NCBI GenBank assembly: GCA_010015805.1
Contig: ML978127.1
Location: 1,054,001-1,118,000, forward strand
DNA length: 64,000 nucleotides
Source: Rhizodiscina lignyota
Lineage: Eukaryota
Direction of reading: 5' to 3'
Part shown: in pieces, positions 4,796 to 48,765 of the stretch
How positions within the stretch are numbered: the first letter of the stretch is position 1
Layout: each line of letters begins with the position of its first letter
Position numbers and translations under genes: made by a program
Notes under the pieces: model-generated
What the model was told of the DNA's origin: nothing
Databases searched by the model: none
What the model saw: only the letters and a program-made list of their open reading frames with translations

Positions 4796-5934
4796 ATTTG
4801 CGATAACTTTTGCAATTGGAGAGAAGTGAGACGTTGGTGTTTCTTGATAATTGCTGATAGATTAGCACTCTGGGCGAAGGCTTGAACTAATCTTTTGTTC
4901 AGTTTAAGGAGCCATCAGTAGCCAAGATCCAGAAGTCAACCCATTAACCCAATAAGTGTCAACAATTACGATATCTTTCTGGCTAATTTTAGAGTAGAGT
5001 CAGCTTTTGCACTTGGCTGCACAACATCGCCTACCCCGTCTCAGCCATCATCGTATTCATCATCAGCCTCATAAACGTCAAAAAGAAATGCGCTTAGCAA
5101 ATCAACATTAGTTTGCCGGAGCTTCATATCAAAATGAGCTTGCGAGTCAGCTCAGGCTGACGAGTTACGATGTTGCACAACACATGTATCGGTCGTGGTA
5201 TTGTTCCGCCGGATCACAACATCAGATTCGTAAGATATTTCTTTTGTGAATGTCGCACAGCATGTGATGTACCTTCCATTGAAGGAGAAGCGTGCGAGCG
5301 ACACTCAAATTCGAATTTCAAAGTCGGTGAGATAGAATCGTATTTTCGTCCATTGTTCGTAATGGACTTCAAACCTTCGAATGTCTTGGAAACCTTGGAA
5401 ACCCTTGGAATACCTTTCATTGCGTTAATTTCGGAAATATTTCGTGTCGTAGTTTCAGAGACGCTGCCATTGTCAGTAAAGGGAAAGCCACAACACTTTC
5501 CTTGACCGGATCTGAACAATATTGTCGTATCGGTCCGAAAGAGGTTGGCTCGGGGGCAAGCAATGACGAATCGGATTAGCTCAGTGTGTATGTGACTGAG
5601 GTTTCTGTAAACCTCCCGTTGGGAGCGTATTGTATGATTGGTGAAATCAGCCCTTAGACTTTCACCGTGAGATCATTATTCGCGACAGGTGGCAGGTACA
5701 CCTCAGAACTCGCGATGCGTTGAGGTGTATATAAACTTTGTTTCCAGTATTCCTTCCGATTCTCGCCACCCCAACAATTTAGACTCGCGCGCTCCTCCGT
5801 GCTTCCCACTTCGGCCATTTACCTTCGCCGACCCTTCGCCGAACATAATCTCATTCTCTCTTGCAAAACACTACTTCTCTCACCCTTCTCTATCTCTGTC
5901 TCGAGGCGAATTTGTACTCCTCGTTTCGTCTATC

Positions 5935-8900: not shown

Positions 8901-11436
8901 ACATGCGACACTATTCACCACCAAGATTGACGAGAACACAAAGCCTTTCCCGGGTAACCACCCTCTCCACGGTACGGAGATAATACCTGCGGCTGTTCTC
9001 TTCAATACCTTCCTGCATGCGACGGGCGAGAATAGTCTAAGCAACATCAATCTTCGAGTTCCGGTTGCCATTAGTGCTCCAAGGGATGTCCAGATCCTTG
9101 CGCAAGATTCCGAGATTTGCCTTATGTCTCGACTGATTCAGGCAAATGATGATGAGACAGACCGCTCTTCATCGTGGCTAACGCATACCACTGCATCAAT
9201 CAAACAAGGTGCAGCTAACGAAGGATGTGTCTCTGATATCGACATCGAGGAAATCAGAGGACGCATCGGTACGGAACTCAAGAGCACTTTCTCTATCGAC
9301 TATCTGGATAGCGTCGGAGTATCCGCCATGGGCTTTCCATGGGCAGTGACACAACATATGGGAAACACCAAAGAAATGCTGGCCCAAGTGGATACCTGCC
9401 CTTCTTTGCCTGATGATGCTCTGCTGCCGTGGCACTCTGCATCCTGGGCACCCATTTTCGACTCCGCGACATCCGTTGGCTCAACTTTGTTTTACGAGAC
9501 ACCACGACTTCGTATGCCAGCACATGTTGAGCATGTAACGGTCCGCGAGGGTGCTGTTCCCCCTAAGACCGCCTACATATATGTTCAAGAAGCTTGTGCA
9601 GATGAGAAGAATCTTGCCGTACACGTCACAATCACGGACGAGACTGGTCAAACGCTCGCAAGACTTCACAACATGAAGTTTGCCGAGATTGAGGGTACTC
9701 CTGGAGCAAGGGAGAGTGCGGATGGACTGGTCCATCAATTGGCTTGGCCTCCAGCAAAACTCCGTGAGGTACCTCTGCCGATGAAACATGTCTTCCTAAT
9801 TGGAGACTGCACTAGTCCTCTGCTCTCCAGCTACCAGAGACAGCTCGAGAAACGTGGAATCAAAACATCGCTTGCGCCCTGTATCAGTGGCGTTTCCAGT
9901 GGAGATTTGGCTCAAACCTCGGAGGGGAGACTAATCGTGTATTTGCCGGCGGAGGTCAAAGACATCGACGCAGTTTCGGAGGCCGCTAACCAAAGCTGCA
10001 AAGATTTGCTGGATATTGTCAAGGCTGTTGCGGCCTGCGGTGGGAAGTATCGCATATATGTCGCTACCAATGATGCCCTAAGCGGTGCCATTCCAACCGG
10101 ACTTGCTCATGCTCCACTGGTCGGCTTGTCAAGGATCATCGCAGCGGAGCATCCCCAACTTTGGGGAGCTCTGATTGATCTTGATTCCGACCTCTTCCCT
10201 TTTCAGGCTGTGAAGCACGTCTCTGACGTCGATGTCATCAAGATGGCCGACGGCATCGCTAGGATTGGTCGCCTTCGTCCGATGCCAAGGGAAAAGCTAC
10301 TACCGGCAAGCGCAGCTAGTCGTTTCGAGCCAAAAGCCAGAGGCACTTATGTTGTGTCTGGTGGCCTTGGAGCTCTGGGTCTTGAAGTCGCAGCCTTCCT
10401 CGTAGAGCGTGGAGCAAGAAGAATCGTTCTGCTATCTCGACGTGCTTTACCGCCTCGCAAGCAGTGGGAACAAGCAGAAGGATCACTGGGCGAAGTCATG
10501 CGCAAGATCGAAGCGATTGAGAGTACCGGAGCGTCGATACACACGCTTGATGTTGACCTATCAAGCCCGGAAGCAGCAACGATGCTCATGGCCCGTCTCG
10601 AGGCGATGGGACTGCCGAAAGTCCTCGGCGTCATCCATGCTGCCGGCGTACTCGAAGACCAAATGGTACTTAACACGACCCGGGAATCGTTCAATCGGGT
10701 TCTCGCTCCCAAAATTGCCGGCGCTCTTGCTCTTCACAAGGCCTTCCCTCCCGGCTCGGTTGATTTCTTCATGCTGTTCTCAAGCTGCGGTCAACTTTTC
10801 GGCTTCCCAGGACAGGCATCATACGCGAGTGGCAACGCCTTCCTGGACAGTCTCGCCGAGCATCGCCGAGCTTTCGAAGATAACTCGGTCGCTTTCCAAT
10901 GGACAAGCTGGCGTGGCATGGGTATGGCTGCGAGCACTGATTTCATCGAAGCTGAACTGGCGACTAAGGGTATAACTTCGGTCTCTCGGAATGAAGCGTT
11001 TCTCGCCTGGGATGAGGTGGCGAAATATGACATCTCACATGGCGTTGTACTTCGTGCGCTGCCCTTGAATGCGGATGAACCCCTCCCAGCGGACATTTTG
11101 GAGGAAATCGCTGTTCGCTGCCAACCCACCGCCAAAGATGTCAGTTCATCAGAGGCAGCGAATACGTCAAACGTTATGCCACCGCCAGGGCAGGACCGTT
11201 TCGCATATCTGGAGAAGAAGATCACCGAGTGCGTCGCCACTGTCTTACAGATGAATACCGCAGACGTGGATGCCAAAGTTGCACTGCCGGAATTGGGCAT
11301 GGATTCGGTGATGACAGTCACTTTGCGGAGGCAGCTGCAGCAGGTCTTGAAAGTCAAGATCCCGCCGACACTGATTTGGGGCCATCCGACCGTGTCGCAT
11401 TTGACGAAGTGGTTTGTGGAGCAGCTAAGTGGTTGA
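5935..11436 (+). CDS. Iterative type I partially reducing PKS, 6-methylsalicylic acid synthase (MSAS) type: KS-AT-TH/DH-KR-ACP
   Basis: About 1780 aa; KS DAACASS / EAHATST / KPNIGHLEAGAG; AT GHSVG and DIAFH; HPLHGTEIIP; KR GGLGALG and YASGN; ACP LGMDSV. Proposed ATG 5935 with introns 5954-6006 and 6084-6180 restores frame to LYLDDIAVVG. Confidence 0.95.
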
Positions 11437-11714
11437 ACGCAGCGAGCGCCTTCTTTTTTATCTTCCATATGCGGGCATGGTTTCTTTTCTTCGATTACTT
11501 CTGCTCTAGATTCGATTGCACTACTTCGTGCTGCATGATTAAACTTGTTTTGACATTCAAGTGTCAGTATGTCACATTTGAGACAGCGATCATAGGGATT
11601 CCGCACGACTTTCACCGTTGCTAGTTTCCAGTAGCTATAGACGATAGACCTCTCTCACGATACTGAATTCCAGAATTTGCACTTACACGAACTGCACGCA
11701 AACCATGAGAAACA

Positions 11715-13523
11715 TCAAGACCTCTTCCTGACCCTCATCATGGTACCGCCGCGCGGGGGCTTCGCTTCCATCGCCAACTCCTGGAAAATCCTATCGCCAT
11801 AAATTGTGTCCAATTTAGTATAGCTCGTACGAGGCTCTTTATTCGGTACCAGGTCTGCGATCTCGAAGTCGTAGTCACGAAGCGTCATAACTAGGATGAC
11901 CTTCAGCTCATTTACTGCCAAGTTCTGCCCTAAGCACGCCCTAGCGCCTCTACTAAATGTCCGGAACGCGTTACGAGGGGGCATGTTGTCTGGGTCCATC
12001 CACCGATCTGGTATGAACTCGTCCGGCTTCGGGTAGATTTTCGGATCGTACTGAAGGGTGTGTGGTGTGTTGACTACGACGACGTTGCCCATGGCATATT
12101 GTTTACCGGCGTAAGAGATGGTCGCGCTAAATTAAAGAGTCAACGATATATAGCGATTGGAGACTCGGGTTATCGCGTACTCATCCTCCGCTTGTCTCAC
12201 ACTAAATCCCACAGGAAACAATCTCAGGGTCTCTCGGATCACAGCACCAGTATATTCTAATTCCTCTAGCTTATGAGGGGATGCTTGAAGTATGTTTAGA
12301 GTTTCGTTGAAGTCTGGGTGGAGGATACGGGAATGCTCTTCTCTGAGTTTCTGAATAACTTCCGGATTTTTGGACAGTAGTATGTAGATGTACTGAAACG
12401 TGTTAATCCCTGATCCGCGAAATTATTTACGATACTTACGCATAAAGTGTCCGTGGTTGTGCCGTGGCCTCCAACGAGTAGTCCCTTAACACTGCCAAAT
12501 TTTAGCATGTATATCAGTATCGGTCCGCAGACTTACTTCGCTAACAGCAATTCAAGCCATTCGGGGCTGATGTCTTCGACGTCCTTTCCTTCTTTCAATT
12601 CCCCACCGTCCTGCAGTTGCTCACGCAGCATCAAGTCCAATATACTGTAAGGATCTTTCCTCGAGGGCACGATTTGATCCTGACGCAACATGCTGAGGCG
12701 GTTCTTGATTTGCGCCATGATGGAGGGATTCAGCCTCGCGAGAACGACTCTTCTCCTAAAGAATGTCGAAATGTGCACGAACGGGTTCCAGGAAAGCTGA
12801 TTTTCGGCAAGATGGATCATCTCCCTTAGATCTTCCAGGTATGAGCTCCCTTCTGTCTGTGCGTTGAGTGAGAAGTTAAAGAGGATCTTTCCGATAATAT
12901 CAAAGACTAGTTTTGCGCTGGTATCCTCCATCGAAAAGGTCTCTCCTGTTTTCGCTAGTTGGTCCAATGTGTTGCGGAAATGCATACACTCGTCAACGAA
13001 AACCGTCGTCAAGCTCCGAATGTGGCTCCATGAGAATGCAGGTACCATGGAGTTGTGCAACTTCTTCCAGACTGGTCCATTTGCGGCAGCAACGACATTC
13101 CTTCCTACCATGGGCGCGAGGTAATCGTCCGCCATTTGATGTATGGGGAGTACTCTCGTCACGGTCACCTGGTCAAGGAGTTCCGGGGACGTCAGGACGA
13201 GTTGCGGTTCAGCGGCCGGCCACAGATCCAGATAGAATAGGCCGTCCAGATTATACTTTTGCGCAATGACAGTCAGGTAGGCCTGGGGGTGCATGTTTGG
13301 CGGCAACGTTGCTGCAGCCTCGCCCATCACCTTAAGATGGCCCCATAGCCAACTGTGTGGTGGTCCGCGCTGCAATTTGTTAGATAGTGAAGAAGCCACA
13401 AACTGTGAATGAGCATACTAGATCTCTGAACCGCCTGCGGTGTCTGTACATGCGGTACGCGAAGTTTAGGAGCCATGCTGACGCTAAGGAGAGCACGACA
13501 ACTAAAATCGATCCAATTGCCAT
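11715..13523 (-). CDS. Cytochrome P450 monooxygenase
   Basis: Membrane anchor MAIGSILVVVLSLASAWLL, PPHSWLWGHLK, I-helix GGHGTT, ETLR, PDRW, heme motif FSRGARACLG; multi-exon. The N-terminal pattern resembles StcS/AflN-like P450s (inference). Confidence 0.93.
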
Positions 13524-22063: not shown

Positions 22064-25000
22064 CTATTTCATCCAACATTTAGCCCATTCCGACACGCAC
22101 TTCTTAATCAGTCCGCTTCCAACAACGTCCACACCGTCCCTAATTACACCTGTTCGTTCGCCAGTCTTGCTAGTTTCGAAAACCAGGCCTTTTCGCCCAG
22201 GCATGTCATTGTCGTACTTCTCTACGAAGAATTCCAATAGCTTGATGGTCGGGTTCTTCTCTGGATCCGGTTCCCCTTCTCGGAGCCTCTGGATCCATTC
22301 ACGTTGCGAGACAGTCTCAAATTCCAGCCCTGCTTCTTTCAGCGCAGGAAGAAGATCGTCACTCCAACTAAATAACCGGGGGTTCTGGAGATGGTACACC
22401 AGGTCAATGCCGGAAAGAACTCCCGCATCAACGAACGGTATGCGCAAGCCTGACAGATCTAAGGTGGCTTCTGCACACTTGTCGACCGGCAGCCAGCTAG
22501 GCATCTCATCCAATCTTGGAAGGGCTCGTATGGTTACTGCGGAACGGATCATGAGCGGAATGGCTTCAGTGTCATTCCATAGCCCGTTTATGGTGTCACC
22601 AATAAGCTGGCCTGTCCGCAGAACTCGGGTATCTTGCCCTGTGGATCGCCCAGCGGCCCGGACGATGTGCTCCGCCACGAATTTAGACCGGGCATAACCC
22701 ATATTCTGCGCATGCCCCGGATTTTGAATATACGCCTCTTTGATGCTAGCAGGAACTGGTGTGCCAGCGGCCGCAGAGATCGATGAAATGAATGAGAATC
22801 GTGCAGGTCGGTGGAATGGTACGCTTTGACACACACGCAGGAGATTGTAAGTTCCACGAATGTGGTGTGGTTCGAAACTGGCTACACCGATGTTGAAATT
22901 CACCGCCCATGCGCTGTGGATTACACTCGTGAGAGTGCGTTTTAATGTCGTTAATGTCGTCTCATCAAGACCGAGATCCGGTTTGCTCAAATCACTTGGC
23001 AGTGCTTTGACTTTCTCTGGAGCTGAGAGTGACGGAAGCCTCCTGGCCGCCAGGGACTGCGTGATTCGATCTTGCGCAGCTGCTGTGGATTCTGCTCGTA
23101 CCAGACAGTATACAGCCATAACGTTCGGCAGTGCGAGTAGCTGAGAAAGCAAATGAGCTCCCAGGGATCCAGTCGCTCCCGTCAGGAGAACAACGTCACC
23201 TTGCGGTATTTCATTCCCAGGGACAAAACGTGGGAACGATGAGTACTTCTCGATGAGCTCCCACATCACTTCCACATCATCTTTCCTGTCTCTCATTGAA
23301 CCGATACTGATCGAATACAGATGCTTCGCGAGAGCTCGTATGGATGGATGCTCAAACACAACATTCTGGCCAAGCGTACGACCGGCAAGATAAATTTCCC
23401 TCATGATGTGTCCCCTTGCAGCAATTGCCTGTCGACTATCGGTTCCAGCTTCAAAAAAGTCTTTATCCAGGCTCAGACCAGCAACACCAACGCGATTGGT
23501 GAAAAGGTCCATCAAATAAGCCTCAAGGTCGGCCGAATCAAGCTTTCGCTGTGCATCGGCATCTTCAGGGGTTTCAAATCGAACATATACTTCTTCAATC
23601 AGCTCGGCAAAGTGCTTGTACGAAGCAGCGCGAATCATTGTCCCCTTGTCAGTACGTGGATAATCGATGTCATGCTGAAGTATTTCCACCATCTCCATTG
23701 GAATCTGCCCGAACTTCTCCGTCCGAGTATTAGCAGCCTCTATCGACGGCTTGAGCCTTTCAAGAAGCACTTCTTTGCTAGTGTCTCTTCCCTTTTCGCT
23801 TGGGATTACTAAAATCCCAGGGAAAGCCTTGCCGACTCCGAAGACGAGGCAATCTTGGACGAGGTCGTTCTGTCTAATCTGATGCTCGTAGGGAACAGGC
23901 AGGACCTTCTCTCCATTCACTAGAGTCACTCTGTCATCGAGTCGTCCGAGATATTTCCAAGCATTTGGAATCGTTGGGTGCGCCTCAAACGTGTCTCTCG
24001 TATGGAAGGAGTTCGGCGGGTCATCCGAATTGGAGAGTATCTTTGTTGGCAGGCCATCCAAAACTACGCATTCGAAGACGCCATCACTGACGGGAAGAAA
24101 ACGCAGGTATGGCACTACTTTCGGCAGCGGTCGCATATAATTCCACGCCTTGTCTTCTGAATCGCGGAAGGACGTCATCAACTGACCCATTTCGGTCCTG
24201 GAAGAGGTTAGCTAAGTCAGTGAACAACTGTGATACACTGAGACTGACGCTCCGTAATGCCCAACGACATAGACGCCCGCGCTAACGAGGAGATCACCGA
24301 GTTCATCTGGCAAGCTGCTGCCTCCGAAAAGTACAAGCTTGCACTTTGTTAAAGCGGCCACGCCTTCGTCTGATTCTGCAAGAACCTTCAACGCGTATGG
24401 AACGCAGTGGAAGCTCTCTGGTTCAGCTGCCTTCATCGCCTCGACCAAATTGGAATTCGTGAGCGGCAAGTTTGCGTTGTAGAATACTGTCCGCTTGTTT
24501 GCCACTATCCCTCTAAAAGTTGTCGCAATACCGTGGTTGTGGAACAGCGGCAGCGTCACAAGTGCTCGAAAGCCGCTGCCAAGCGCATAGTTGGATAAGC
24601 ATGATCGGTGCGTCTGAAAGATCGGCTTTGGCAGACCAGTTGATCCGGAGGAATGGACGATAAAAGCTATACAGTTCTCTTCGTTGATCAACTCCACCCG
24701 TCTCTGGAACCTCAACTCTGTTTCCGACATCACGGCATATATCGATCGATCCAAAAGCGGGAATCTCCGCACGCTGTAGACTTCTTCAATGCTTTGGATA
24801 GTCTTTGAGAATTTGTCTGAAGCAACAATATTGGCGCAACTGGACTTCTCCAACAGCGATACGTACGCCTCGATTGGAAGCCGGGTCGACAAGAAGAGCA
24901 CTGCGAAGCCCATCCGTGTGAGTGCCAGCAGTGCGATGAAATAGTCCAAGTTTGACGGGCCCAGGAGCCCGACAACTTCGCTCTTGTCACTTCGTTTCTG

Positions 25001-25261
25001 TCTTGGAACAAGCCCCATACTCGTTAATCGAGTCGCTGCTGCATCTGCGAAAAGATCGAGCTCTTTTGCGGTGTATTCCGCTAAGCTACCGTTCTCGCGG
25101 TCTGAAGCTGGGTAAGCTATCAAGACGGTGTCTGGAATCGTTTCAGCTTTGTGGATAATGAGGTCATTAATGCAGTTTATGTCTTTTCTCTTTGAAGGTT
25201 TTAATGTGGCGGAAACGTCTAACTTAGCCACAGACTCGACTGATGTGATTGAAACCGACAT
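22064..25261 (-). CDS. NRPS-like carboxylic acid reductase (adenylation-thiolation-reductase, A-T-R)
   Basis: A domain HSSGSTGLPKPI, YGATEMG across the intron (about 24199-24247), GRLDDRVTLVNGEK, PRTDKG; T domain DFFEAGTDS; R domain LTGATGSLG, HSAWAVNF, GYARSK. About 1050 aa. Confidence 0.93.
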
Positions 25262-25407
25262 GGTCAAAGTGCTCCGGTTTCTCTTCACGGAGGTTTGGAA
25301 ATACACAACACCCAACGAGCTTAGTTGGGATATATATAAATATATATATTTTACAGGATTCTCAAGCTGGATGCAATGTAACAGACTGGTATCGATGCTA
25401 TGCTTTC

Positions 25408-25467
25408 GGATTATCGGATAATCCTGGAAACCCCCGGAACCATAAGATCAGCTCCCCGATCGGGGAG
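25408..25467. promoter_or_regulatory. CGG-rich palindromes in the divergent CAR / Zn2Cys6 promoter
   Basis: GGATTATC-G-GATAATCC (25408-25424) and CTCCCCGATCGGGGAG (25452-25467) are perfect inverted repeats; a TATA-rich tract lies at about 25330-25352. Confidence 0.5.
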
Positions 25468-25720
25468 ATTGAGCTTCAGAGAGAACATCAAGAATTCTAG
25501 CATTTTTGCACATCGAACGGATTTCAGACGTAAATTCCGGACCAGTGCTTTGATTGTCTCATGTGGAGCTGGAAGCATCGTCGGCTGGGGTCTTCTTAGC
25601 CGTTAGCGCTTGCTGACTAAATGCGGAAAAGCGTCAAATTTCGAGCTTTCGCAACTTCCGACTCTCGATTTCTCCGTCTTCAGTTATCCGTGTGTACACG
25701 CCGAGCGACAACTTCATCGG

Positions 25721-28116
25721 ATGGCGAGTGAGATCATACCCGGCGTCGGATCTATAGTCGCACAAGCCCACCGAGAACAGATTTCAAATGAGACCGCAAA
25801 CTCTCGCCGGAAGCTGAGCAACGGTCCAGACGGAGGTCCCCCGGCTAAGAAGCGGAAAGAGCGAAGTCGAGTGAGTCGAGCGTGTGATCGCTGCAAAGCG
25901 TACGACCATAGCTTGGTTTTGAAGTATGCGGCCTAATAATAGTCTAGGCGAAAGTCGAGATGCTCAGGCAAACGACCATGTACACTCTGCGCTCGATTGG
26001 GAGCAGAGTGTCTCTTTACCGCAGAATATCGACGAGGCAGATTACCGTCAATCGAAAGCGACACAGAGGCCATTGACAACACTTTGGATCACATGACGCC
26101 GCAAATGCCTCACAGTGGTGTTGTAAGCGAGAGTAGCAAGGTGGACAATGCTATGCTCCCAGGCTCAAGTCCGGCCAGCAATGAGCAACTTCAGAATGCG
26201 GGAAATCAGGCCACTCCGGCCTCTTTGCTGAATGTTGAAAATGTACCTGCAAACGATACGATTTCAGCTGCTCAGTCGTCAGGAAATTCTCCAGAGCCGT
26301 TACAAAGCGACCAGCAAGGTCACTTTGTAGGCCCTGCATCGGGTGCATCATTCTTGCTAAGGATCCAGAGGAATCTTCTCCGACAACAGTCTTCTATCTC
26401 ATCTGAGTCCTCGATATTCACGTTCGGGGACCTTCCTTTACCAGAATTCGATCCCTCGTTCGTTATTCTTCCAAACAAGAGTGATGCAGAGGCTTTGGTA
26501 GCTAGATATTTTGAGTTTGCATCAGCTACGCACAGATTCTTGCATCGTCCGACCGTTGAGCAATGGCTTCAGGAGCTGTACACAGATGGTGCAATGAGGC
26601 ACAAACCAAGTGCACGTAGTCGCACTGCTTTGCTTTTCATGGTCTTCGCCCAAGCCCGTGTTTATCAGAAGCCCTCACTCAGCGATGAGATCGATTCTGG
26701 GTTAGTTCCCCTTCCATTGCCGGCAAATGATTACTGACTGAAAGACAAGCGCACGGCTCTTCTCCGCTGCTGAGCATCAATTGGCAGCTGAAAGAGGAGC
26801 AATACGTCTTACGAGTGTCCAAGCTCGCGTTGCACAATGCTTATACCTCTTAGCACAATCTCGTATCAATCATTGCTGGAGTCTCTTTGGAACTACATCA
26901 CACCTTGTATTGGCCCTTGGAATTCATCGCAAGCAAAGAGGAATTAATCGGTCAAATATGGACTACATTGACTTAGAGTGCAGGAGACGAACATTCTGGT
27001 GTGCTTATGTGAGTGGTCTTGTCTTTTGTCCGGATTATAAGCAGTCCTGGCTTGACTGAATTGTTTTAGAATATTGACACCTACCTAAGCGCGGCACTTG
27101 GTAGGCCAAGGACCTTTCACGATGACGACATTGATCAGGCAATGCCTTCGTGTGTCAACGATGAAGACCTTCATACTCGGCACATGAACCCCTCTCCCCT
27201 CCCATCTCAATCTACCATGTCCGGCTGTACAGCGCATATCGACCTCTCGCGGATTCTCGCCAACATTCTCCGAGACTTATACGGTATCAAGCAGCCGTCC
27301 TTTGAAACCAGGCTTAGCCTTTCCGACAAATATGAGCAAGATCTTCAAAACTGGCGAAGAGACCTTCTGTATCTTTTGGACACCAGCGGGATTGATCCGT
27401 CAATGTTCTTACCGATTTTCTTACGACAACGTAATGTTCTGAATCTAGCTTTTTGGCACGCCCAGATCCTCGTTCATCGACCTTTCTTGTTAAGTACCTT
27501 TGCCGGAGGTAGCAAATCGGCGATGAATGAAAGTCCGGAAGTGAACAGACATGTTCGTCAATGCTTAAATGCAGCTCTAAATATCGTCGACCACGTCCAT
27601 CGGATGAGTTCCACTGGCCAACTATATAGCTCGTACTGGTTTACGCAGTACTTCTCATTCTGTGCTGTTGTGGTTCTGTATGTCTACAGTATGCAACAGC
27701 CCGCGTCGTTCTCCGAAGAAGACTATCGCAATGCATTCGAGGCTGGAGCGAGATGTCAAGAACAGCTTTCTGATATAGCCGCAAAAGGGTCATTGGCTGA
27801 GAGATATGGTGTGGTACTGCAGGAGCTTCGTCTCGAAGTTCTCAAGCATGCATCATTTACTCAAAACACAATAGGACCGCAAACAGCCGGCCCTAACCAT
27901 GGCCGAAGCCTTCAGCAAGTGCCTGAGCAGAGGCTTGGGATGTTCCATCAAGGACCAAGCGACACGTTCCTTAGCACTAGCCCGACTGGTTCAATTGGCG
28001 GTGTAACTGGATGGGGTCAATTTGACTCGCTTGTCACCGGAGGACTTGCAGAACTCGAGTCCTTCATGACCGATGGCAATGATGGCGCACTGTGGGACTT
28101 TGGCATCAGCGCATGA
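25721..28116 (+). CDS. Zn(II)2Cys6 transcription factor with fungal-specific TF domain
   Basis: RVSRACDRCK / RKSRCSGKRPCTLCARLGAECLF split by an intron; NLS PAKKRK; YFEF...HRFLH, LGIHRK, ECRRRTFWCAY, LGRP, LVHRPFL. Confidence 0.94.
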
Positions 28117-28156
28117 GAAAATCAAACAACAGAGTACCTTGCGGTAGCGTGTTTAG

Positions 28157-29149
28157 TTACAACTTCTTCAACCCATCGATCACTCTTTGCTCAACTTCAA
28201 TCCAGTCTCTTGCTTTTACCTTTTCCCTCTCCGCATAACTCCTTTCAAATGGCATCCTCAGCTTCGGGCCGCCAGCAAGCGGTTTACTCTCTCGCATCTT
28301 TTCAGAATACTTTGCCACTTCCGACTTGAAGCGATCCACATCCACAAAGCAGCCCGGATCAATACACATAATAACGTAGCCAAAATCTTTCAGCTCCTCC
28401 GGCAGCACTGGAGCTCCCGCCATCGCTCCAAGAAGCTGCACAGCAACAGCAAGTCCACTTCCTCTGGCCTCCCCCCATACAGCTAGCGCACCCTTAAGAG
28501 CAGCAAGTGGATCTGTCGTTGGGTTTCCCTCCGGGTCATAAGCCACTCCTTCCTTCAATTGCTCTCCCAAACGCACGGCGAGCTTCGCTTCCGCTTGGAT
28601 AATTTTGCTCGTGCCAATGTCCCATATTACTGGCACTTTCTCGGCCGATGGAAACCCCATGCACATAGGATTCGTACCGAACATTGGCTCGCAGCCTCCG
28701 TGAGGTGCCACCCATGCTGTGCAGTGGCTAGTGATAACCACGACAAGGTTTTCTTTACATGCTAGCTCGGCGTAATATGAAAGCATGCCAGTGTACCAAG
28801 TACCATTAGCACAGACAACGCTGACACCACAGTTCTTTGCTTTTTTAATTGCCATTTCAGTCGCCGCGAGAGCGACGATGTAGCCGACAGCGTCCCCGCC
28901 ATCGATTTGCGCTGTGCATGGAGACTCGCGGGTCGTGATAACTTCTGTCACAGGCGGCGCATTTGGATCCAGATTTTCTGCAACAGATAGAAGTCGTGCG
29001 AGACCTCCGACCCCGTATGATCGTAATTCAGCGTCAAGAAGGTGATCTGCAACTACTTTTGCTGGCCCTTCAGGGTACCCGAGGCGTTTAAGGGAGTCCA
29101 AAAGTAGTGTTCGTGCTTCTGCAATTGAGAGCTTGACTTTGCCCGACAT
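28157..29149 (-). CDS. Ldh_2 (malate/L-lactate/L-sulfolactate dehydrogenase-type) NAD(P)-dependent oxidoreductase
   Basis: Intronless 330 aa; IDGG..VG, A.KKAK..GVSVV, VAPHGG.EPMFGTNP, WDIGTS, EGVAYD.EG.PTTDP..AL.GAL, RGSGLA, IDP. Confidence 0.88.
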   Translation of the reverse strand: MSGKVKLSIAEARTLLLDSLKRLGYPEGPAKVVADHLLDAELRSYGVGGLARLLSVAENLDPNAPPVTEVITTRESPCTAQIDGGDAVGYIVALAATEMAIKKAKNCGVSVVCANGTWYTGMLSYYAELACKENLVVVITSHCTAWVAPHGGCEPMFGTNPMCMGFPSAEKVPVIWDIGTSKIIQAEAKLAVRLGEQLKEGVAYDPEGNPTTDPLAALKGALAVWGEARGSGLAVAVQLLGAMAGAPVLPEELKDFGYVIMCIDPGCFVDVDRFKSEVAKYSEKMRESKPLAGGPKLRMPFERSYAEREKVKARDWIEVEQRVIDGLKKL

Positions 29150-29666
29150 TTTTCTGGGTATCGATGGCTTAAACTGTATAAATAAAGCTTTTTAAGGCCT
29201 TTGCGCTTTTAACTGATGTGGGAGAGCTCCTCTAACACCGAACAGATTCGAAATGGTGTTGAAGGTCATCTGACGGAAGCATACAAGCCGTTCAGTGCGG
29301 GCAGCCGAGATATCAGCTTTGCGACCGACTTGAATATATATTTATTGCCAAGGAGACATTTTGAGGAATAAAGCTTTGGCGAAGGCCTTGGGGAGTGCTT
29401 GTAAGTTGCATGATGTCAATTAAGTTTGTGTTCTAGAGAGATTGTGCATATTGCAGTGCAATCACCACCTACCTGGGATGGATTACCCCTTTTCTTATGC
29501 TCTATCTGAAGCTTCCCACGGCTTATCAGCAGCTCGAATACCATTAGAGTATACTCTGGTGTGATTAAATCTCACAAACCAGCTTAAGTTGATTACATTC
29601 TTTAACATGAATTATTTGCGGGCATTTCAATTATGTTATGGCGCGGCTGGACTCAAGTCATCTCAT

Positions 29667-30997
29667 TCACCATTCCCTGATTTCACCTCCAGGGCCGGTG
29701 AACGAAAAGTTTTTCCAAGCCTCAGCACCTTTTGACAACTCTCTCACTTTTTCTTCGTCTATCTCAAAGCCCAGCCCAGGTGCTTTCATCAAGTCGACAT
29801 ATCCATCCGTGACTTTCCAGATTTCTGGGTTTTTCATGTAACTTAACAAATCTCCACCAACGTTGTAATGGATGCCTAAGCTCATCTCTTGGATCGCAAA
29901 GTTCGCGATTGTTGCATCAACCTGAATATTGGCAGCAAATGCGATTGGCCCCAACGGACAATGGGGTGCAATCGCAACATCGTACGCTTCTGCCATTGCC
30001 GCTATTCTCTTCAGCTCAGAGATACCGCCAACGTGACTAATGTCAGGCTGTAGTATATCCACACAACCTGCCTCGAGGAATGGCTTTACATCCCAGCGCG
30101 AGTACAGCCTCTCACCGAGTGCAATGGGGTTGTGTGTGAGCTGCGACAGCGCCTTGATACCCTCAATATGCTCTGAAAGCAATGGCTCCTCAATAAACAA
30201 CGGCTGATACGGTTCCAGTGCCTTTGCTAGTTGCTTCGCCATAGGCTTGTGGAGACGGCCATGGAAATCCACGCCCGCGTCCATACCGAGAGACTTAACA
30301 GCCTTGAGTCGCTCAATGGAATCGTTTAAAACCTTGGGAGAATCAAGCCAGCCAACATCCTCTGTAGCATTCATCTTGACTGCTGTGAATCCTTGTTCTT
30401 TCCGTGCCTGGCTTTACAGTGTGTTAGTTAGTCGCCGCTCGGTGCGCTTGAACTTTGCAGACATACGCTTGTTCTCGGACATCTCCTGGACGGTCTCCTC
30501 CGATCCATGAGTAGACTTTGATTTTGTCTCTTACTTTGCCGCCTAGGAGCTGGTAAATTGGCACGCCTAGCTTTCTTGCTGTTCCCCACAATCATCAGCC
30601 GGATTTAACATTAGATTTGGGGCTGCATTAACAGTAGCTAGTTTTTATACCTTTGAGATCCCACAAAGCGATATCTAATCCTGCCAACGCACTCATGAAA
30701 ACAGGACCACCTCTGTAGAACGATGTTCGCCATGAAAGCTGCCATATCTGCTCGATCTCACTGCAAATCCGGTAGTTAGGCACATATGTAAATCCTTGTA
30801 TGAGGTGAGAGATAGCCATACTCTGCTTCCAACCCAGTATAGTGTTTGATCCAAGCATCTAAACAGCCTTCAATGGCCTGCGTATGACCTTCCAATGTTG
30901 CTTCCCCCCAACCTACATTGCCCGCTTCGTCGGTGATCTTGACAAACAGCCACCGAGGTGGTACTCGGAAGTATTCGATGTTAGCAATCTTGCCCAT
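29667..30997 (-). CDS. D-galactonate dehydratase-like enzyme (enolase superfamily, DgoD type)
   Basis: [87 protein letters not shown]; three introns. Confidence 0.93.
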
Positions 30998-31374
30998 TGT
31001 TGTTTCTGGGCCTCTTTGATATCTTATACGGGGCCTAACAGTTCAGTTAAGGTAAAGGTCGGGTCGAACACATAAAGAGAAAATCTTCATCGGCAGCACA
31101 TGCTACGGAGGTTATTGACTATTTCGGAAGCTTCCCGCATAGCCGATCGGAATTCTTGTCACGGAAATCAAGGTTCATTGGAGCTTTCTCGCGCACTCGC
31201 AGACTCCGTATTCTCGCAATTGGGTCTAATTTGCACGTGGAACAACGCGACTTTTGCTGCCAGAACGCCAGCACAAGCTCAAATCTGATAATGCTATTCT
31301 ACGCGTACTTTTCTCTAAACAATTCAATGGCAGCTTTCATATAAAACGAATGAGAAGCATGGTCTATTTCTAGC

Positions 31375-32586
31375 CTATGCTTTTTGCGCTTTTATCTTCT
31401 TCTGTCCCTCTATCCAATCTGCTCGCGCCTTCTTCAGTGTTGCCTCGTCATGTTCGCCAAACACATTCACCCCAAGTCTTATCTAAAACACGAAGGACGA
31501 ATTAGCATTGCTACGCGATCTGACTTTTCAAGAGCTGGCTTACTGGCATGTTGTATCGCTTTTTTCTGTCCAAGGCTGTTATTTTCTCAAAGGCGTCCTC
31601 CGGGAGCTCAAAATCTTGGAAATTGGCCTCTATCCTGGCAGGCGTCACGCTCTTTGGCAACACAACAGTCCCTCTTTGCACTGCCCATTGTATGAGCACC
31701 TGTGCTGGCTCTTTTCCGAGTTCCTTTGCTATGCCGATGACGACAGGGTCGTCAACTCCGCGAGGGAAGTTGTATATGTTGTTGCCGAGCGGGCTATACG
31801 CCGCAACGACTATTCCCTGATCTTGCATCCATTTCGTAAACTCTGGCTGCTGAAAATAGGGGTGTGCTTCGATCTGATTACACGCGACTTTGATTTCGGC
31901 CGTCTTGTGGAGTTCCTCGATCCTCTCACGCGTAAAGTTGCTCACGCCGATACTCCGTATCTTGCCTTTCCTCACTAGTGCCTCCATTGCTCGCCATGTC
32001 TCAGAGGCTGAAACATCTGTTACATGGACACCGCCATCGACAGGACTTATGGGGAATCGGTCTTTGAACGAAGCTTTCTGAAATGAGACAGGCCAATGGA
32101 TCTACTCACGATGTCAGTCAGCTTCAGTCCCTTCAATGGATGTTAGCTCTGATGCTTACGAGGTAGAGGTCAACGTAGTCGGTTTGCAACTCTTTCAGGG
32201 TGTTGTCCAGCCCTTCTTCCACGTCTGCGGCCGCGTGATGGGTGTTCCACAATTTGCTTGTAATGAAAATGTCCTTTCGGGGGACGCCTGAGGCGAGGAT
32301 GCCTCGACCGACTTCATCTTCATTCTCATATGCGGCTGCACCATCGATGTGGCGATATCCCGCTCTCAAAGCGGTCTCCACTGCCTTTGCGACTTCATTT
32401 GGCTTGGATTGCTGAATGTCATTCCATCGTGGTTAGTGACAAGTTCGCCAGGCGCGCCGCGCGCGCTTGTCGGAGAAGCTTTGGCCGGGAGAGAAAGGAG
32501 ACCGGAGCGGCACTCACCCAAGTCCCCAATCCAACCGCTGGAATCGAATAGCCAGAATTCAACTTGAAAGTCCGTCCTGTTGACAT
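31375..32586 (-). CDS. NADPH-dependent aldo-keto reductase
   Basis: LNSGYSIPAVGLGTW, GYRHIDGAAAY.NE.EVG, FITSKLW, DLYLIHWP, IGVSNF, NQIEAHPY, AYSPLG, LPKSVTPARI; last exon IRLGVNVFGEH...KA* ends at 31375. Confidence 0.93.
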
Positions 32587-33009
32587 GATGGCAAACAGCT
32601 TGTATTTCTCCAAATTGGAGAACGTCAGCTCCTTAAGGCTCTCGTCTCGTCGCGCGTCCTCGACGCGGACCTTGTCATGCCGTTGCTTGCTACTCTTTTT
32701 CCGTCCGTGACCTGTTAACCGGAAGCATTTTCTCTTTTCCGAACGAGAGATTCGAGTTCGAGGATCTTTGACAAACGGTAGTCATTTGAGAACCAGTAAC
32801 TTGCTTTATCAGGCGCGCAAGCTCATCATTGCTGCCGCTAGTTACATACGTCTCGGTCCAAGATCTCGCGAACTTGGCCGACAACGGCACCAGACAGTGA
32901 ACTCGTTCTGGCAATCCAACTTTCATCTAATTCATATTTCTTTTCTTAAAGGGGACCAATTTAGTCTCAATTAAGCATTCCCCAACACTACAAGTTCAAA
33001 CCAGACGAC

Positions 33010-34153
33010 ATGGCAGCTATACCACCCGACGGTGTCTTCGTTCCTGTCCCCACCTTCTTCAAACCTGCCTCGAAAGCCTCACTCCAAGCGGCCGTTGACG
33101 TCGAGACGCAAGTAGCACACAGCATACACCTCGCAAAATGCGGTATAACGGGATTAGTTCTCCTCGGCTCGACTGGCGAGGCTATAGCTCTGTCTCGCTC
33201 GGAGCGCTTTGATCTGGTTTCTGGCGTGCGGAAAGGTCTCGATGCTGCAGGCTTCAAAGATTATCCCATAATGGCAGGCGTGCTTATAAATTCTCTGGAC
33301 GAGGCGTTGGAGTGGCTCGGCGACTTCCAAAAGGCCGGTGCACAGTGGGGTATGTCACACTCGTGACGAGGTTGTGCAGACAATTGCTGAAACGATTAGG
33401 ACTGGTGCTGACTCCAGGTTATTTTGGGCCGGCTGTAAACCAGGAGAATCTGGTGAGTGCATACGCATGTGGGAACCCAAACTCCGCTAATGTATCTTCG
33501 TGGTATCTAGGTTGAGTACTATACTACCGTGGCGGATAATAGCCCAATACCAATTTTGATGTGAGTGGATGGACGGCTATACTTTGAGCTGAGAAACTGA
33601 CCAAAGTTGCAGCTACAATTATCCAGGCGTCACGAACAACATCATGGTCGCTCCAGAAACTTATGTCAAGCTTGCTGCCCACCCAAAGATTGTGGGCTGC
33701 AAGATGTCCCATGGAAACGTCTCGCATCACGTTCAAATGTCTCTTAATCCTCAAATCGACACGAAGAACTTCCGCGTCTACTCAGGCTTCGGCCAGCAGC
33801 TTGGCCCCATTGTCGTTTTCGGGGCTGCAGGAGTGATTGATGGTCTCGCGGCAATCTATCCAGCCACGGTTACACGACTGTTCAAGCTTGCGTCGCAGCG
33901 GCCATTGACGGATGAAACGCTCAAGGAACTCCAAGAACTCCAGTTCATCATCTCAGCCGCTGAAGAGTTTGTTGTCAAGGGTGGCATTGTCGGAATTAAG
34001 GAAGGCGTCTACAGAGAGTTGGGAATGGGCACGCTAGAGGGTGGAAGGCTCCCATTAAAGGGAAAGTTGGCCGATGGAGAGTTCGAGAAGTGGAAGAGTG
34101 GGACAGGGGCGTTGGTGGCGATAGGAACACTGGAGGCGAAATTGAAGCCTTGA
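33010..34153 (+). CDS. DHDPS/NAL-family class I aldolase (2-keto-3-deoxy sugar acid / HOG aldolase-like)
   Basis: GVFVPVPTFF, LGSTGEA, YNYPG, HPKIVGCKMS (Schiff-base Lys), GVIDGLA; three introns; divergent from the AKR gene across 423 bp. Confidence 0.92.
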
Positions 34154-44264: not shown

Positions 44265-45916
44265 ATGTCGCGTGTCTTTATGCGTCCAATTCTTCGGACA
44301 CAGAGAAGCCATTGGAAACCCCAGAAGTCGCTCCACACTACTAGCAGAATGTCTTCCGCGGCAACCGCTGCTGCCCTGTATGCTGCGGCAGTGTCGCCAG
44401 CACAATTGACTGGTGCCGTACCTGAAGACGCGAAGGAGAGAAGACATCATCTCAAAGGAAAGAAAGGGTTCCAGAATCCGTCAGTACCGGAGCAGGATCC
44501 ACTTAAAAAAAAATAGCTGACTCAAGACATAGCTGGGACTCCTTCCGTGACCAGAATGGCTGGAATATCGGACGCGCCATGATATGGTATGACCCTCAAT
44601 GCTCAGCAACAACTGACACTAATTGTGAGAAGGCGCCATTTAACTGGCAAATCCAACAAGCCAGACACTTCACCACCGACCGTCCCTGTCCACGCACCTA
44701 CCTTTCTCCCATCCCGCAGTACCCAAAGCCTCCGCGCAACATGGCTTGGCCATGCATGCTATCTCGTCGAATTCCCGAGCGGCTTCCGCGTCCTCTTCGA
44801 TCCTGTCTTCACGCATAGATGCTCGCCATTTTCATGGATGGGTCCAGCGCGATACACCAAGGCGCCGTGCCAGATTGACGACATACCAATGGTCGACGCT
44901 GTGGTAATATCGCACAACCACTATGACCATCTGAGCCATCCAACGATTATGAGGATCAAGGAGAAGCACCCCGAGGTACATTTCTTCGTGCCGTTGGGGA
45001 ATAAGCGCTGGTTCGAGGAGGCGTGCGGAATCACGAATGTGACGGAGCTGGACTGGTGGGAGTCGCGCGACATTCGGCTGTCGCTTTCTCAGGCGAAGAC
45101 GGGGCCGAAGAGCGGGAGAGATATTATCGTCGAAAATGGCTCCGATTCTGAAAGCACCGCTCGCAGTGATTCGGGCGAGGACATCGTAGCGACAATAGGG
45201 TGTCTCCCGTGCCAGCACATGACAGCGAGGACTCCTTTCGACCGCATGCACACACTCTGGGCATCGTGGAGCGTCGAGAGCGGTGGAAAGAAGGTTTGGT
45301 TCGCAGGGTAAGCACCTCAGTAAATAATCACGATCACTGCTGGGTTTCATGTCGCGTCGCACGTGCTGGCGTCGAAATCAGGTTTAGTGCTTACCCAGCG
45401 TCGGAGGAGCATTATTTCAGCCCCGGTGAAAATTTGTGCTAACATTATCGTCTTCGCGCAGTGACACAGGATATCGTTCTGTTCCAGAGTCCTCGGATGG
45501 TGAGGACGACTATGGCGAGAAGTACAAGAGCTTGCCGCACTGCCCTGCATTTGCCCAGATCGGAGATCTGAGAGGGCCATTTGACTTGGGTCTTATTCCA
45601 ATTGGCGCGTACGATCCAAGATTCATTATGAGCCCAATGCATGCGAATCCAAAGGATGCGGTTAACATCTTTGTGGATTCGAAATGCAGACGGGCTTTGG
45701 GAATGCATTGGGGTACTTGGGTCCTCACAGAAGGTAAGCTAAATTATAGAATTGAGAAGGCGCGAAAATGCTGACGGGGACTCAGAGGATGTTCTTGAAC
45801 CGCCTAAGCTGCTGAGACAGGCACTAGCGGAGAAGGACATATTAGAATGGGGCATCTTTGACGTATGCGATATCGGCGAGAGCCGGGAATTTGCAGATAC
45901 GATGGACAAGCTGTAA
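44265..45916 (+). CDS. N-acyl-phosphatidylethanolamine phospholipase D-like metallo-beta-lactamase (Fmp30/NAPE-PLD family)
   Basis: GFQNP/WDS, ATWLGHA, LFDPVF..RCSP...[59 protein letters not shown]. Confidence 0.92.
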
Positions 45917-46058: not shown

Positions 46059-46786
46059 TCAAAGTTCCAAGAAGACGAACGACATGAACGCCATCATTCC
46101 AATCACGAAATTACACGTCCAAACTCCAAATTCTGGTGTCGCTGCTCCGGCTTCTGCTTGAGTAGTCGCTGTCGGCTGCGAAGGCGCGCTATATGTCAGC
46201 GTTCTGGTGAAATTGAAGTTCGATGTTGCTCCCGGGGCCAATATCGACTTGTTAAAGAAAGGAATGGCCGTCGTATCAACCAGAACAGGTCCTGTTTTCG
46301 TGATATTTGCTGTTGTTGATGGAGCGAGAATGGTCGTGAGGATGTAAGCTGGTGGTGTCCGTGTAGTCACCGTGACGAGTGGATTTGATGAAGAGGAGGA
46401 GGAAGCGTAGAGACAAATGCTTGATGCGATGCTTGATGCGACTGCAAACCTTTATGTCAGCCGTTACGATCCGTTCCAAACCAGAAGAATCGCTACATAC
46501 GAGACTGGTCCTTGGAGTTGCAGTTCTGGCGGATGCCATAGTCCAGATCAGACATCATATGGCTATCTTTGCAGATGCATGCTGTGTCTGTAGGGTCGCA
46601 CGGGCTAGCAGCGAGGTCTTGGAAGATTCCATATTGCTTCGCGACTGTGTTAGCGACTGTGCTCGAAGTTGCACACTTGATAGTACTTACAGCACAGGAA
46701 GGAAGCTGACCGATATCAATTGTAGTCGTTTGTGCTGCGGAACATAACGACGCTGTGAGGACTGAGGAGATATGGAGGAGACGCAT
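46059..46786 (-). CDS. CFEM-domain cell-surface protein, probably GPI-anchored
   Basis: Signal peptide; LPSCA...CDPTDTACIC...C-x15-C after splicing two introns; Thr/Ser-rich stalk; hydrophobic C-terminus. Confidence 0.8.
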
Positions 46787-48765
46787 CTTGCAAGTACAAG
46801 TTTCATCCAGTGTCCAGTTTATCGAACTTCGGGGCCTTGAAGGCACCCTCTGTTTTTGAGACACTCCGCATCATTATGGCTTTCCGCTTGCACAGTATCT
46901 TTTCGAATTCCTCAAACTGAAGGCCATTCAAGTTTTCCGTCCGCTTTCGCAGCAAAGTTCTAATGTTGAGACGGTTGTGGTGTGTCACCCGTCCGCGCTG
47001 CGATTGGTCTGGAATGTGGACGTTTCCCAATGCAGACAGTAACAAAGACCGATCCAGTTAAGCGCTAATCTTTCGCCGCAATCACTCGTGGGCGACGGCA
47101 GATTCCATTCGCTCTTTGTTCGGATTCTAGATTGGGTAATACTTGGCCACAGACTTGGTTGCGACGTCATTGGGAGGTTCTACGGGTAAGGCTGGAGAGA
47201 CCCAGCGCATATAATAAAGATGTGGGGAATCGTCCGGGGGCCGAGATGGCTAATAGTCCTCTTGACCCACTTCACATTCGCACAGGAACAGCTCTTTGTG
47301 AGACACCTCAATTTCCGATCCTCATGCATCCTAACGATGCCCACTTGAGTCCGCCTTGCTCGCCAACAGCTCCGGGGGTCCAAAATGGTGTCAGCGTCTA
47401 TTCTAGGTTAGCCTCCCTCGCGTGACTCTCATATGAAGAAGTATAATAACTATCCTTAGGAGATTGTCAACCCATATTGCATCTCTTCTAGCGGAAGCCA
47501 CCCGCACTGCTGCGACTCGAGAATGTATCCCACCAGCTCATTTACCAACATCCAAAGGCAATCTCATGAGTGCCGGAGCGGCTGCGGAGATGGAGGCGAC
47601 AATGGCAAGGTTATCGTTAGACTCGAATACGGTTCCAAGAGTGCGCATGGTGAAAGTTGAGAAAGAAGGCGATGACGAGAACTCCGCGGCGGAGAAGAGG
47701 AAGTCGATGAACAAACATAGATTACGTTTGAGCCTGAGTGAGAGGAGAACATCAATATGAAATTTTGTAAAAGAAATGGATTTTTTGATATGAGACGAGC
47801 GTATCGAAACGTTTCATTGATTTCCATAGCAAATTCAATGCCATTTTGGGCAGCTGTTTTGCGCACGAGCTCACGCTCGCCACTCTCCCCGAAGTAATCT
47901 TTGTCCGCACAAGAGGACTCGAACAAATGTTCTGCTAAACAGATATCCGAACTTAAGGCTCTACGCTAATAAAGTCGAGTGGATGTTATTCTTGACGTGA
48001 ATTGAAGATTTTGGCTCCGCGCCGTGGCTCTGCTCTATTGGGCACCCTTGAGTTTAACGCAGGAAGACAGTAGTGACACTGCTTGTCGAGCATGATCTCT
48101 TAGGCATTTAGTGTAGCTTCGGAGATGTACAAAGGATGAGGTTGAAAAGATGAGCCCCAAAAGTGGAGGCTTCAGGTTAAAACGTTGTCGAAGTTCATGG
48201 AGGTACGATACCGCGTTTTAGAGAACGTCGGAATCCGCCTAAGAAAAGACACCTACCTCCGTGCGGCTTCCTTGGGTTCGCCTAAAATGTTCAATCAGAC
48301 GCCTGTCCACCAAGAGCACGGAAGCTTCGGTAAAAGTAATATAACCCAGACATTTTTTTAACAACTGAAGCTATGTACATAAGAACAGCCTGCCGTGCTT
48401 GCATGGGTCGCGTGCGGTGCAAGTAATCTACGATCAGCCTTGCAAATAGCGTACAACGGGGGTTGCTCTATCAAAACTGGGGAGAGATCGGATGGAATTA
48501 AAATATCCTACTGGGCCGGGGCTTTGAGGCGCCGTCGGAATGTCTCTGTAAGACTTACTTCTGCCCAGGTGCCAGCTGAGCCAAGTTCCTTCTACATCAC
48601 TCCGTCTTACATACACGAAGTTACATGGAAAAAGATGTATTTATAAGGCGCGTCCTCTGAAACTAAAGAGACATCCAGCGCATCTCTCATCTTTTGTTGC
48701 TATCTAAGTAGCAGTCACTGCGCCGTTCCTTTCGAGCCTCTTCCCCCAATTTCGTGGATATCGCT

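Follow-up and report, generated by a model that had tools for sequence, protein, structure and literature searches.

A conserved fungal gene cluster with a carboxylic acid reductase as a candidate reductive route for galactarate in Rhizodiscina lignyota

A 64,000-nucleotide stretch of the Rhizodiscina lignyota genome (assembly GCA_010015805.1, contig ML978127.1, forward-strand positions 1,054,001 to 1,118,000; hereafter the window, in which our coordinates are numbered) contains six contiguous genes led by a nonribosomal peptide synthetase-like (NRPS-like) carboxylic acid reductase (CAR) with adenylation, thiolation and reductase domains (A-T-R). We put the chance at about one half that this cluster is catabolic and takes galactarate through L-galacturonate and D-galactonate to 2-keto-3-deoxy-D-galactonate (KDGal), and on to pyruvate and D-glyceraldehyde. 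The genes are identifiable, retain intact catalytic motifs, are linked in other fungi, have diverged together and share a promoter element. The initial annotation of this DNA had described a six-gene anatomy, and all of its coordinates and strands were borne out by Pfam searches and mapping:

22064..25261, minus strand: NRPS-like carboxylic acid reductase (CAR, A-T-R), 1048 aa (Pfam; mapping of the annotated protein P0001)
25262..25942, no strand: divergent promoter of the CAR and the regulator, with CGGAAAAG at 25624-25631 (8-mer search)
25943..28116, plus strand: Zn2Cys6 / Fungal_trans transcription factor (the regulator), at least three exons, 5' end approximate (Pfam; exon mapping of the orthologue in related locus L031)
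28157..29149, minus strand: Ldh_2-family 2-hydroxyacid/oxoacid oxidoreductase, of doubtful pathway membership (Pfam 3.9e-75)
29667..30997, minus strand: DgoD-type D-galactonate dehydratase (enolase superfamily), about four exons (translation; NF010624; MR_MLE_C)
31511..32586, minus strand: AKR1A-like aldo-keto reductase (AKR), three exons (Pfam; catalytic tetrad; PDB matches)
32587..33009, no strand: divergent promoter of the AKR and the aldolase, with CGGAAAAG at 32734-32741 (8-mer search)
33010..34153, plus strand: DHDPS-family class I pyruvate aldolase, candidate KDGal aldolase, at least two exons (Pfam; motifs)

The regulator is thus divergent from the CAR, and the DHDPS-family gene is divergent from the AKR. 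The annotated protein P0001 (1048 aa; 'acetyl-CoA synthetase-like protein') was 100% identical to the larger CAR exon and mapped to 25261-22067 on the minus strand as two exons around a single in-frame, stop-bearing intron near 24150-24214. Pfam recovered AMP-binding (1.1e-31), AMP-binding_C_3 (3e-40), PP-binding (4.7e-06) and NAD_binding_4 (6.2e-42) domains, so that A, T and R domains are joined in one chain, the architecture by which CAR-type enzymes are recognized. Invariant in all 16 aligned orthologues were the phosphopantetheine-bearing Ser592 (D591-S592), Lys522 (the A10 lysine), Tyr839 and Lys843 of the R domain, and the NADPH-binding motif T677-G678-x-T680-G681 (consensus TGxTGSLG). 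Against the thioester reductase model TIGR01746 the protein scored 208.2 bits, slightly under the cut-off of 213.35, and it failed both the bacterial CAR equivalog NF041592 (carboxyl_red; 76.4 for a cut-off of 1300) and the Lys2 equivalog TIGR03443 (108.1 for a cut-off of 1030). Among solved structures, its R domain matched 8aep (6.8e-38), a chain whose deposited name is 'Acetyl-CoA synthetase-like protein', and 5mso, a bacterial CAR (6.1e-18). It therefore resembles carboxylic acid reductases (EC 1.2.1.30) and the alpha-aminoadipate reductase Lys2 in its A-T-R order, phosphopantetheine serine, NADPH motif and R-domain Tyr/Lys pair, but differs from them in A-domain motifs of its own (TLPL[FY]H[NA]HG and HYG[AST]TExGQLMTS) and in its catabolic genomic context. 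Orthologues were 53-75% identical across Dothideomycetes, Sordariomycetes, Leotiomycetes, Eurotiomycetes and Lecanoromycetes, a breadth that is unusual for a cluster-specific tailoring enzyme.

The dehydratase carried an MR_MLE_C domain (1.5e-66), its closest solved chain was the putative D-galactonate dehydratase 3rr1 (1.5e-72), and its 248-aa last exon alone reached 327.7 bits against the NCBIfam galactonate dehydratase equivalog NF010624, exceeding the cut-off of 311 and bearing out the DgoD-type assignment made in the initial annotation. Copies at 75-78% identity were found in three related loci from fungal metagenome contigs (L016, L027 and L031). Two AKR exons matched Aldo_ket_red (2.9e-31 and 5.7e-20), the Asp/Tyr/Lys/His tetrad was present in the exon translations (Asp and Tyr in HIDGAAAY, Lys in SKLW, His in IHWP), and the first-listed PDB matches were the aldose reductase 5zci (7.5e-38) and aldehyde reductases (2alr and others, E values around 1e-37).

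Pfam matches for the DHDPS-family gene were 1.2e-07 and 8.2e-10, and its translation contained the tyrosine of the YxxPG motif (in YNYPGVT) and the Schiff-base lysine (in IVGCKMS). The L031 orthologue, 64-68% identical to the window protein, matched 3qfe, a fungal structure of unknown function with whose lysine its catalytic lysine aligned (1.7e-35), as well as HOGA1 (2.8e-21) and, distantly, Escherichia coli YagE, which is labelled a KDGal aldolase (3.5e-16). An ESM Atlas query with the aldolase returned generic DHDPS clusters only. Based on gene context, from which its specificity is drawn, we regard this protein as a candidate for the fungal KDGal aldolase, the gene for which is described as unassigned or elusive in two papers (PMC6231085, PMC9781776).

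In other fungi, CAR orthologues have the same genes as neighbors, and the grouping in the window is therefore more than chance. Scanning fungal metagenome contigs with a 16-sequence CAR alignment yielded 80 loci, which were queried with the window exon peptides and Pfam. A CAR tree of 73 rows, with loci too short for the tree assigned by identity, resolved four groups: clade A, a sister clade, clade B and a small L008-like group. Clade A, with 32 rows and a support of 99, contained the window, Botrytis, Aspergillus and others. Among its species are Botrytis cinerea (BCIN_03g00210), Pyricularia oryzae, Verticillium dahliae and Aspergillus steynii. Eight clade-A loci had at least 4 kb of flank, collapsing to six distinct contexts, and the regulator adjoined the CAR in all six. 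The AKR and DgoD were present in three of these contexts (L016/17, L027 and L031), that is, in three of the four that could be evaluated, since the two others stop at the regulator. In L031 the order was AKR (minus), DHDPS (plus), DgoD, regulator and CAR, bordered by unrelated TPR and MAP65 genes. In L016, a dihydroxyacetone/triose kinase (DAK) with Dak1 and Dak2 domains lay between the regulator and the CAR (7550-9549, minus strand), sharing with the latter a 374-bp divergent promoter that bears CGGAAAAG; the L016 sequence ends 726 nt before its own AKR. DHDPS was absent from the 3.5 kb beyond the AKR of L027. The flanks of the window cluster (13.4-22.1 kb and 34.15-44 kb) had zero protein-level similarity to any related locus, and the conserved block therefore spans exactly the CAR to the aldolase.

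Clade-B loci had a reduced version of this arrangement. Of the 24 loci flanked by 4 kb or more, 10 (in six distinct contexts) had an AKR and a regulator accompanying the CAR, often together with an MFS transporter, and these loci never had DgoD, nor any dehydratase or aldolase. The CAR-AKR-Zn2Cys6 modules were in L005, L006/7/14, L060-62, L066, L068 and L070, and also in L033 and L044. None of the 11 sister-clade loci and none of the five L008-like loci had the AKR, the regulator or other cluster genes. Clades A and B share both A-domain motifs given above, unlike the sister clade. In the sister clade, which includes Chaetothyriales, Pleosporales, Xylaria, Fusarium and Colletotrichum, NYGATETG replaced HYGATExGQLMTS and TLPLxHxHG was absent (P0160-P0279 compared with P0001-P0159); some species, for example Fusarium decemcellulare and Cylindrodendrum hubeiense, appeared in both the clade-A and the sister lists. 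The altered motifs and the lack of AKR and regulator neighbors suggest that the sister CARs act on a different substrate class.

The AKRs linked to clade-A and to clade-B CARs formed two clades, each with a Shimodaira-Hasegawa-like approximate likelihood ratio test (SH-aLRT) support of 100, and the groupings within them mirrored the CAR tree. Moreover, the clade-A-linked regulators formed a single clade (SH-aLRT 100). Because of these matching splits, the CAR, AKR and regulator appear to be an ancient module whose members were duplicated together.

A shared promoter element also connected the cluster genes. The 8-mer CGGAAAAG was present in 10 of 16 cluster-gene promoters from four fungi; among 200 dinucleotide-preserving shuffles the maximum number of promoters sharing any 8-mer was seven, and none reached 10. 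All four fungi carried it in front of both the CAR and the regulator, and three of them (L027 included) also in front of the AKR, whose promoter is common to the aldolase in the window and L031. Of 13 clade-A loci with at least 260 bp of upstream sequence, 12 had it at a distance of 227-428 bp from the inferred CAR start, on the upstream side; in the window this distance is about 365 bp. Speaking against a shared element, CGGAAAAG was not enriched in the window taken alone (five found, 2.58 expected). At the edge of clade-B locus L044 (102-128) there were three copies at 13-nt spacing, and a fourth about 430 nt upstream of the L044 CAR. One-mismatch copies occurred upstream of DgoD in L016 and L027. 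The DgoD upstream regions scanned (window 31007-31513, L031:4350-4910, L016:1677-2430 and L027:4390-5000) had no other motif common to the four fungi: the single 7-mer that they shared compares with 0.24 on average in shuffles, where as many as two occurred. The regulator itself matched Zn_clus (6.1e-06) and Fungal_trans (5.1e-12 and 4.1e-10).

The Ldh_2 gene departed from this pattern. Its best NCBIfam match was L-sulfolactate dehydrogenase, at 182 bits for a cut-off of 500, and its best PDB match was 2x06 (1e-51), so that it resembles L-sulfolactate and malate dehydrogenases. No homologue was found in any of the 80 related loci with the window exon peptides as queries, and its upstream region in the window (29192-29666) lacked CGGAAAAG even with one mismatch allowed. 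It is probably a lineage-specific passenger, added locally, and the six-gene pathway of the initial annotation is not supported in this respect. Co-conservation, a check suggested there, held in the fungal contigs for the CAR, regulator, DgoD and AKR, with the aldolase in one locus, and failed for Ldh_2.

In the pathway that we propose, the CAR would adenylate an aldaric acid (meso-galactarate being the most likely) at one of its carboxylates, load it onto its phosphopantetheine arm and reduce the thioester with NADPH to a uronic aldehyde, predicted to be L-galacturonate. The AKR1A-like reductase would convert L-galacturonate to D-galactonate, the DgoD-type dehydratase would form KDGal, and the DHDPS-family aldolase would release pyruvate and D-glyceraldehyde, the latter being phosphorylated, in the one relative where it is clustered (L016), by the triose kinase. 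This order, from the CAR through the AKR, DgoD and aldolase to the L016 DAK, accounts for every conserved gene. The substrate, the order of the steps and the chirality of the products are what we infer for the cluster. On chemical grounds, galactarate would be the only source from which D-galactonate could arise by carboxylate-to-alcohol reduction, and D-galactonate formation requires attack at the end of galactarate that gives L-galacturonate. The Zn2Cys6 factor would drive the CAR, itself and the AKR/aldolase pair, presumably acting through CGGAAAAG.

Genetic work on galactarate in Aspergillus niger involved the same four protein classes. The two most strongly galactarate-induced genes were 39114, encoding an A-T-R protein (about 8700-fold), and 1090836, encoding an AKR (about 8000-fold), and the Zn2Cys6 gene 1125622 (about 750-fold) and the MR/MLE gene 1146483 (about 320-fold) were induced as well; deletion of 39114 abolished galactarate use and that of 1090836 lowered it (PMC5153877). 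The v3 identifiers of 1090836, 1125622 and 1146483 are 53686, 191550 and 50500. The account of this deletion study in the initial annotation was accurate. Its authors, Kuivanen et al. 2016, call the galactarate pathway unknown (PMC5153877). The primers for the 1146483 open reading frame (ORF) encode WLFVKV and HPEAIK, corresponding to WLFVKI and HIEGIK, in the same order, in the window DgoD, and the first of them had its best DNA matches in L031, L016 and the window, each time at the homologous position of DgoD. By this agreement of primer peptides, A. niger therefore induces a DgoD-type gene on galactarate. Furthermore, a gaaA/gaaC double-deletion strain that expresses uronate dehydrogenase still consumes galactarate (PMC6419801); this speaks against passage through D-galacturonate and GaaC and is in line with the L-galacturonate/D-galactonate side. 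The A. niger set differs from the window in that its four genes are unlinked (on chr_701, chr_502, chr_601 and chr_602; PMC5153877), rather than contiguous, and in that no aldolase has been identified there.

The initial annotation had suggested checking the orthology of the window CAR to the galactarate-induced genes of A. niger, and here the two sets parted. The A. niger/tubingensis group was absent from the best 120 matches to the A. steynii clade-A protein P0118, all of which were at least 49% identical; from section Nigri, the matches listed comprised A. homomorphus, A. uvarum, A. sclerotioniger and A. sclerotiicarbonarius. A profile search with the sister clade returned no Aspergillus among the matches listed. 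Because the A. niger group is missing from the clade-A matches listed, 39114 is most likely a paralogue of the window CAR. Regarding its placement, of the short peptides encoded by the 39114 primers ELVCLD was exact only in clade-B locus L073, with the ELV form being seen in clade-B members, and the core SLSSR of SLSSRC was present in all clades. Primer DNA matches for 39114 and for the A. niger AKR were at chance level.

A second gene set within the window belongs to secondary metabolism. According to Pfam it extends over 824-13417 and is separate from the sugar-acid cluster:

824-2110, minus strand: tyrosinase (Pfam)
3398-4861, minus strand: FAD monooxygenase (Pfam)
6043-11433, plus strand: partially reducing KS-AT-DH-KR-ACP polyketide synthase (Pfam)
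11718-13417, minus strand: P450 (Pfam)

The 8.6 kb between the P450 and the CAR had no Pfam match among ORFs of at least 120 aa. Downstream of the sugar-acid cluster were a metallo-beta-lactamase-fold gene (44583-45308, plus strand) and a CFEM-domain ORF (46496-46870, minus strand), neither conserved in related loci. A C-5 cytosine DNA methyltransferase gene was located at 56899-59182 on the plus strand, in two ORF pieces (DNA_methylase 2.7e-18 and 2.1e-07).

Several points weigh against the galactarate pathway as proposed. To our knowledge, no member of the cluster has a known biochemical activity. The window cluster contains no transporter gene. The evaluable clade-A context L057 keeps the regulator only, without AKR and DgoD, and the aldolase is adjacent in just two of three evaluable contexts, the window counted. 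Upstream of DgoD, none of the four fungi had an exact CGGAAAAG, and the window and L031 lacked even a one-mismatch copy. With respect to A. niger, the genetically tested 39114 is the likely paralogue noted above, and its primer peptides give a weak hint that it belongs to clade B; clade A may act on another acid if galactarate is already handled by clade B. Additionally, deletion of the FAD oxidoreductase gene 1121140, which has no counterpart in the window cluster, reduces galactarate use in A. niger, deletion of the MR/MLE gene leaves it unblocked, and no 39114 activity on galactarate was detected in yeast extracts by Kuivanen et al. 2016 (PMC5153877).

Three of these points, namely L057, the DgoD promoters without exact CGGAAAAG and an A. 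niger galactarate gene that is likely outside clade A, would also be expected if the CAR, AKR and regulator reduce another acid, such as D-glucarate, another aldarate or a hydroxy-diacid, with DgoD and the aldolase forming a separate, neighboring unit for D-galactonate from oxidative D-galactose (De Ley-Doudoroff) metabolism. The clade-B modules, which in 10 of 24 loci pair CAR, AKR and regulator without DgoD or aldolase, point in the same direction. We consider such a composite locus unlikely, though by no means negligible. DgoD lies inside the module, between the AKR and the regulator, in four of five evaluable clade-A contexts (including the window), the aldolase and AKR use one CGGAAAAG-bearing promoter in the window and L031, a DgoD-type gene is induced on galactarate in A. 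niger, and reduction of a carboxylate to an alcohol would yield D-galactonate from galactarate only.

A wholly oxidative D-galactose/D-galactonate pathway, with the AKR as a sugar 1-dehydrogenase or a glyceraldehyde reductase and the CAR either accessory or acting on an aldonic acid, as in the conversion of D-galactonate to D-galactose, appears quite unlikely. Certain yeast AKRs oxidize sugars to lactones, and DgoD, the aldolase and DAK fit the lower part of the non-phosphorylative De Ley-Doudoroff pathway that has been drawn for A. niger. Nevertheless, the AKR co-diverges with the CAR even where DgoD is missing, implying a couple in which the CAR acts before the AKR; the cluster contains no lactonase or dehydrogenase; and a reductase using up the substrate of the dehydratase would compete with it. 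That the CAR belongs instead to the neighboring polyketide cluster, reducing an aryl or polyketide acid and lying beside the sugar-acid genes by coincidence, seems very improbable. The tyrosinase, FAD monooxygenase, polyketide synthase and P450 are 9-21 kb upstream, and CAR orthologues are labelled 'NRPS-like' or 'secondary metabolism' in databases. Literature on the Botrytis neighbors consisted of a secondary-metabolism inventory only; the Botrytis CAR orthologue is catalogued under that heading, as the initial annotation had anticipated for pipelines in general. Against a polyketide role, however, the flanks of six other clade-A loci, scanned over their ORFs of at least 130 aa, yielded no ketosynthase domain, the orthologues retain their 53-75% identity over many Pezizomycotina classes, the CAR travels with the regulator, AKR and DgoD instead, and the 8.6 kb without Pfam matches separates it from the P450.

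The proposed galactarate pathway has counterparts among known systems. It follows the logic of the fungal D-galacturonate pathway (gaaA-gaaB-gaaC-gaaD), in which a reductase leading to an aldonate is followed by an enolase-type dehydratase and a pyruvate aldolase, and the window has a bidirectional reductase/aldolase promoter, as does gaaA/gaaC (PMC6419801). It differs from that pathway in having a dehydratase of the D-galactonate (DgoD) rather than the L-galactonate type and in the CAR step that precedes the others. With the non-phosphorylative De Ley-Doudoroff pathway of A. niger (DgdA/DgdB, an unknown aldolase and DAK), it shares a DgoD-type dehydratase, an aldolase yielding pyruvate and D-glyceraldehyde and, in L016, a DAK; a 2022 model places DAK as the final step of the fungal pathway. 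Here, by contrast, a DHDPS-family aldolase candidate is clustered, and entry would be reductive from a diacid instead of oxidative from D-galactose. Bacterial galactarate and glucarate routes begin with a dehydratase, followed by an aldolase or a decarboxylating dehydratase, with pyruvate as the end product. The substrate class and pyruvate are thus held in common, but bacteria dehydrate the diacid directly without ATP, whereas the fungal proposal spends ATP and two NADPH to desymmetrize the meso-diacid first.

A-T-R reductases, sugar-acid clusters and the genetic need for an A-T-R gene in galactarate use are already known. The new elements are a conserved linkage, both physical and regulatory, with DgoD and the aldolase, and the picture of a two-module family. 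Our literature search for a galactarate or aldarate reductase route in fungi, whose coverage lay outside most subscription journals, returned reviews only and no paper that resolves the route, and the knock-outs of 2016 are still all that a 2025 review cites. A broader, more tentative proposal, to which we give somewhat less credence than to the pathway itself, is that fungi have a family of catabolic NRPS-like 'aldarate reductases', each with its own AKR and Zn2Cys6 factor, that use ATP and NADPH to desymmetrize sugar diacids to aldonic acids. In such a family, the conversion of galactarate to D-galactonate would fall to clade A, along with DgoD and the KDGal aldolase, and clade B would act on another aldarate, for example glucarate.

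The fungal galactarate route has been open since 2016, and the linked CAR-AKR-DgoD-aldolase set reduces the question to a four-enzyme reconstitution. Galactarate is a pectin-derived diacid, and the cluster offers a testable route by which molds may consume it, puts forward a gene for the KDGal aldolase that has been 'elusive' in the fungal De Ley-Doudoroff pathway, and supplies deletion targets for galactaric-acid production strains beyond A. niger. It also serves as a warning that a widespread and well-conserved NRPS-like clade is mislabelled as secondary metabolism. If the proposal is true, fungi would break down aldarates reductively, as an alternative to every bacterial route known, and enzymes routinely filed under secondary metabolism would have a primary-metabolic role.

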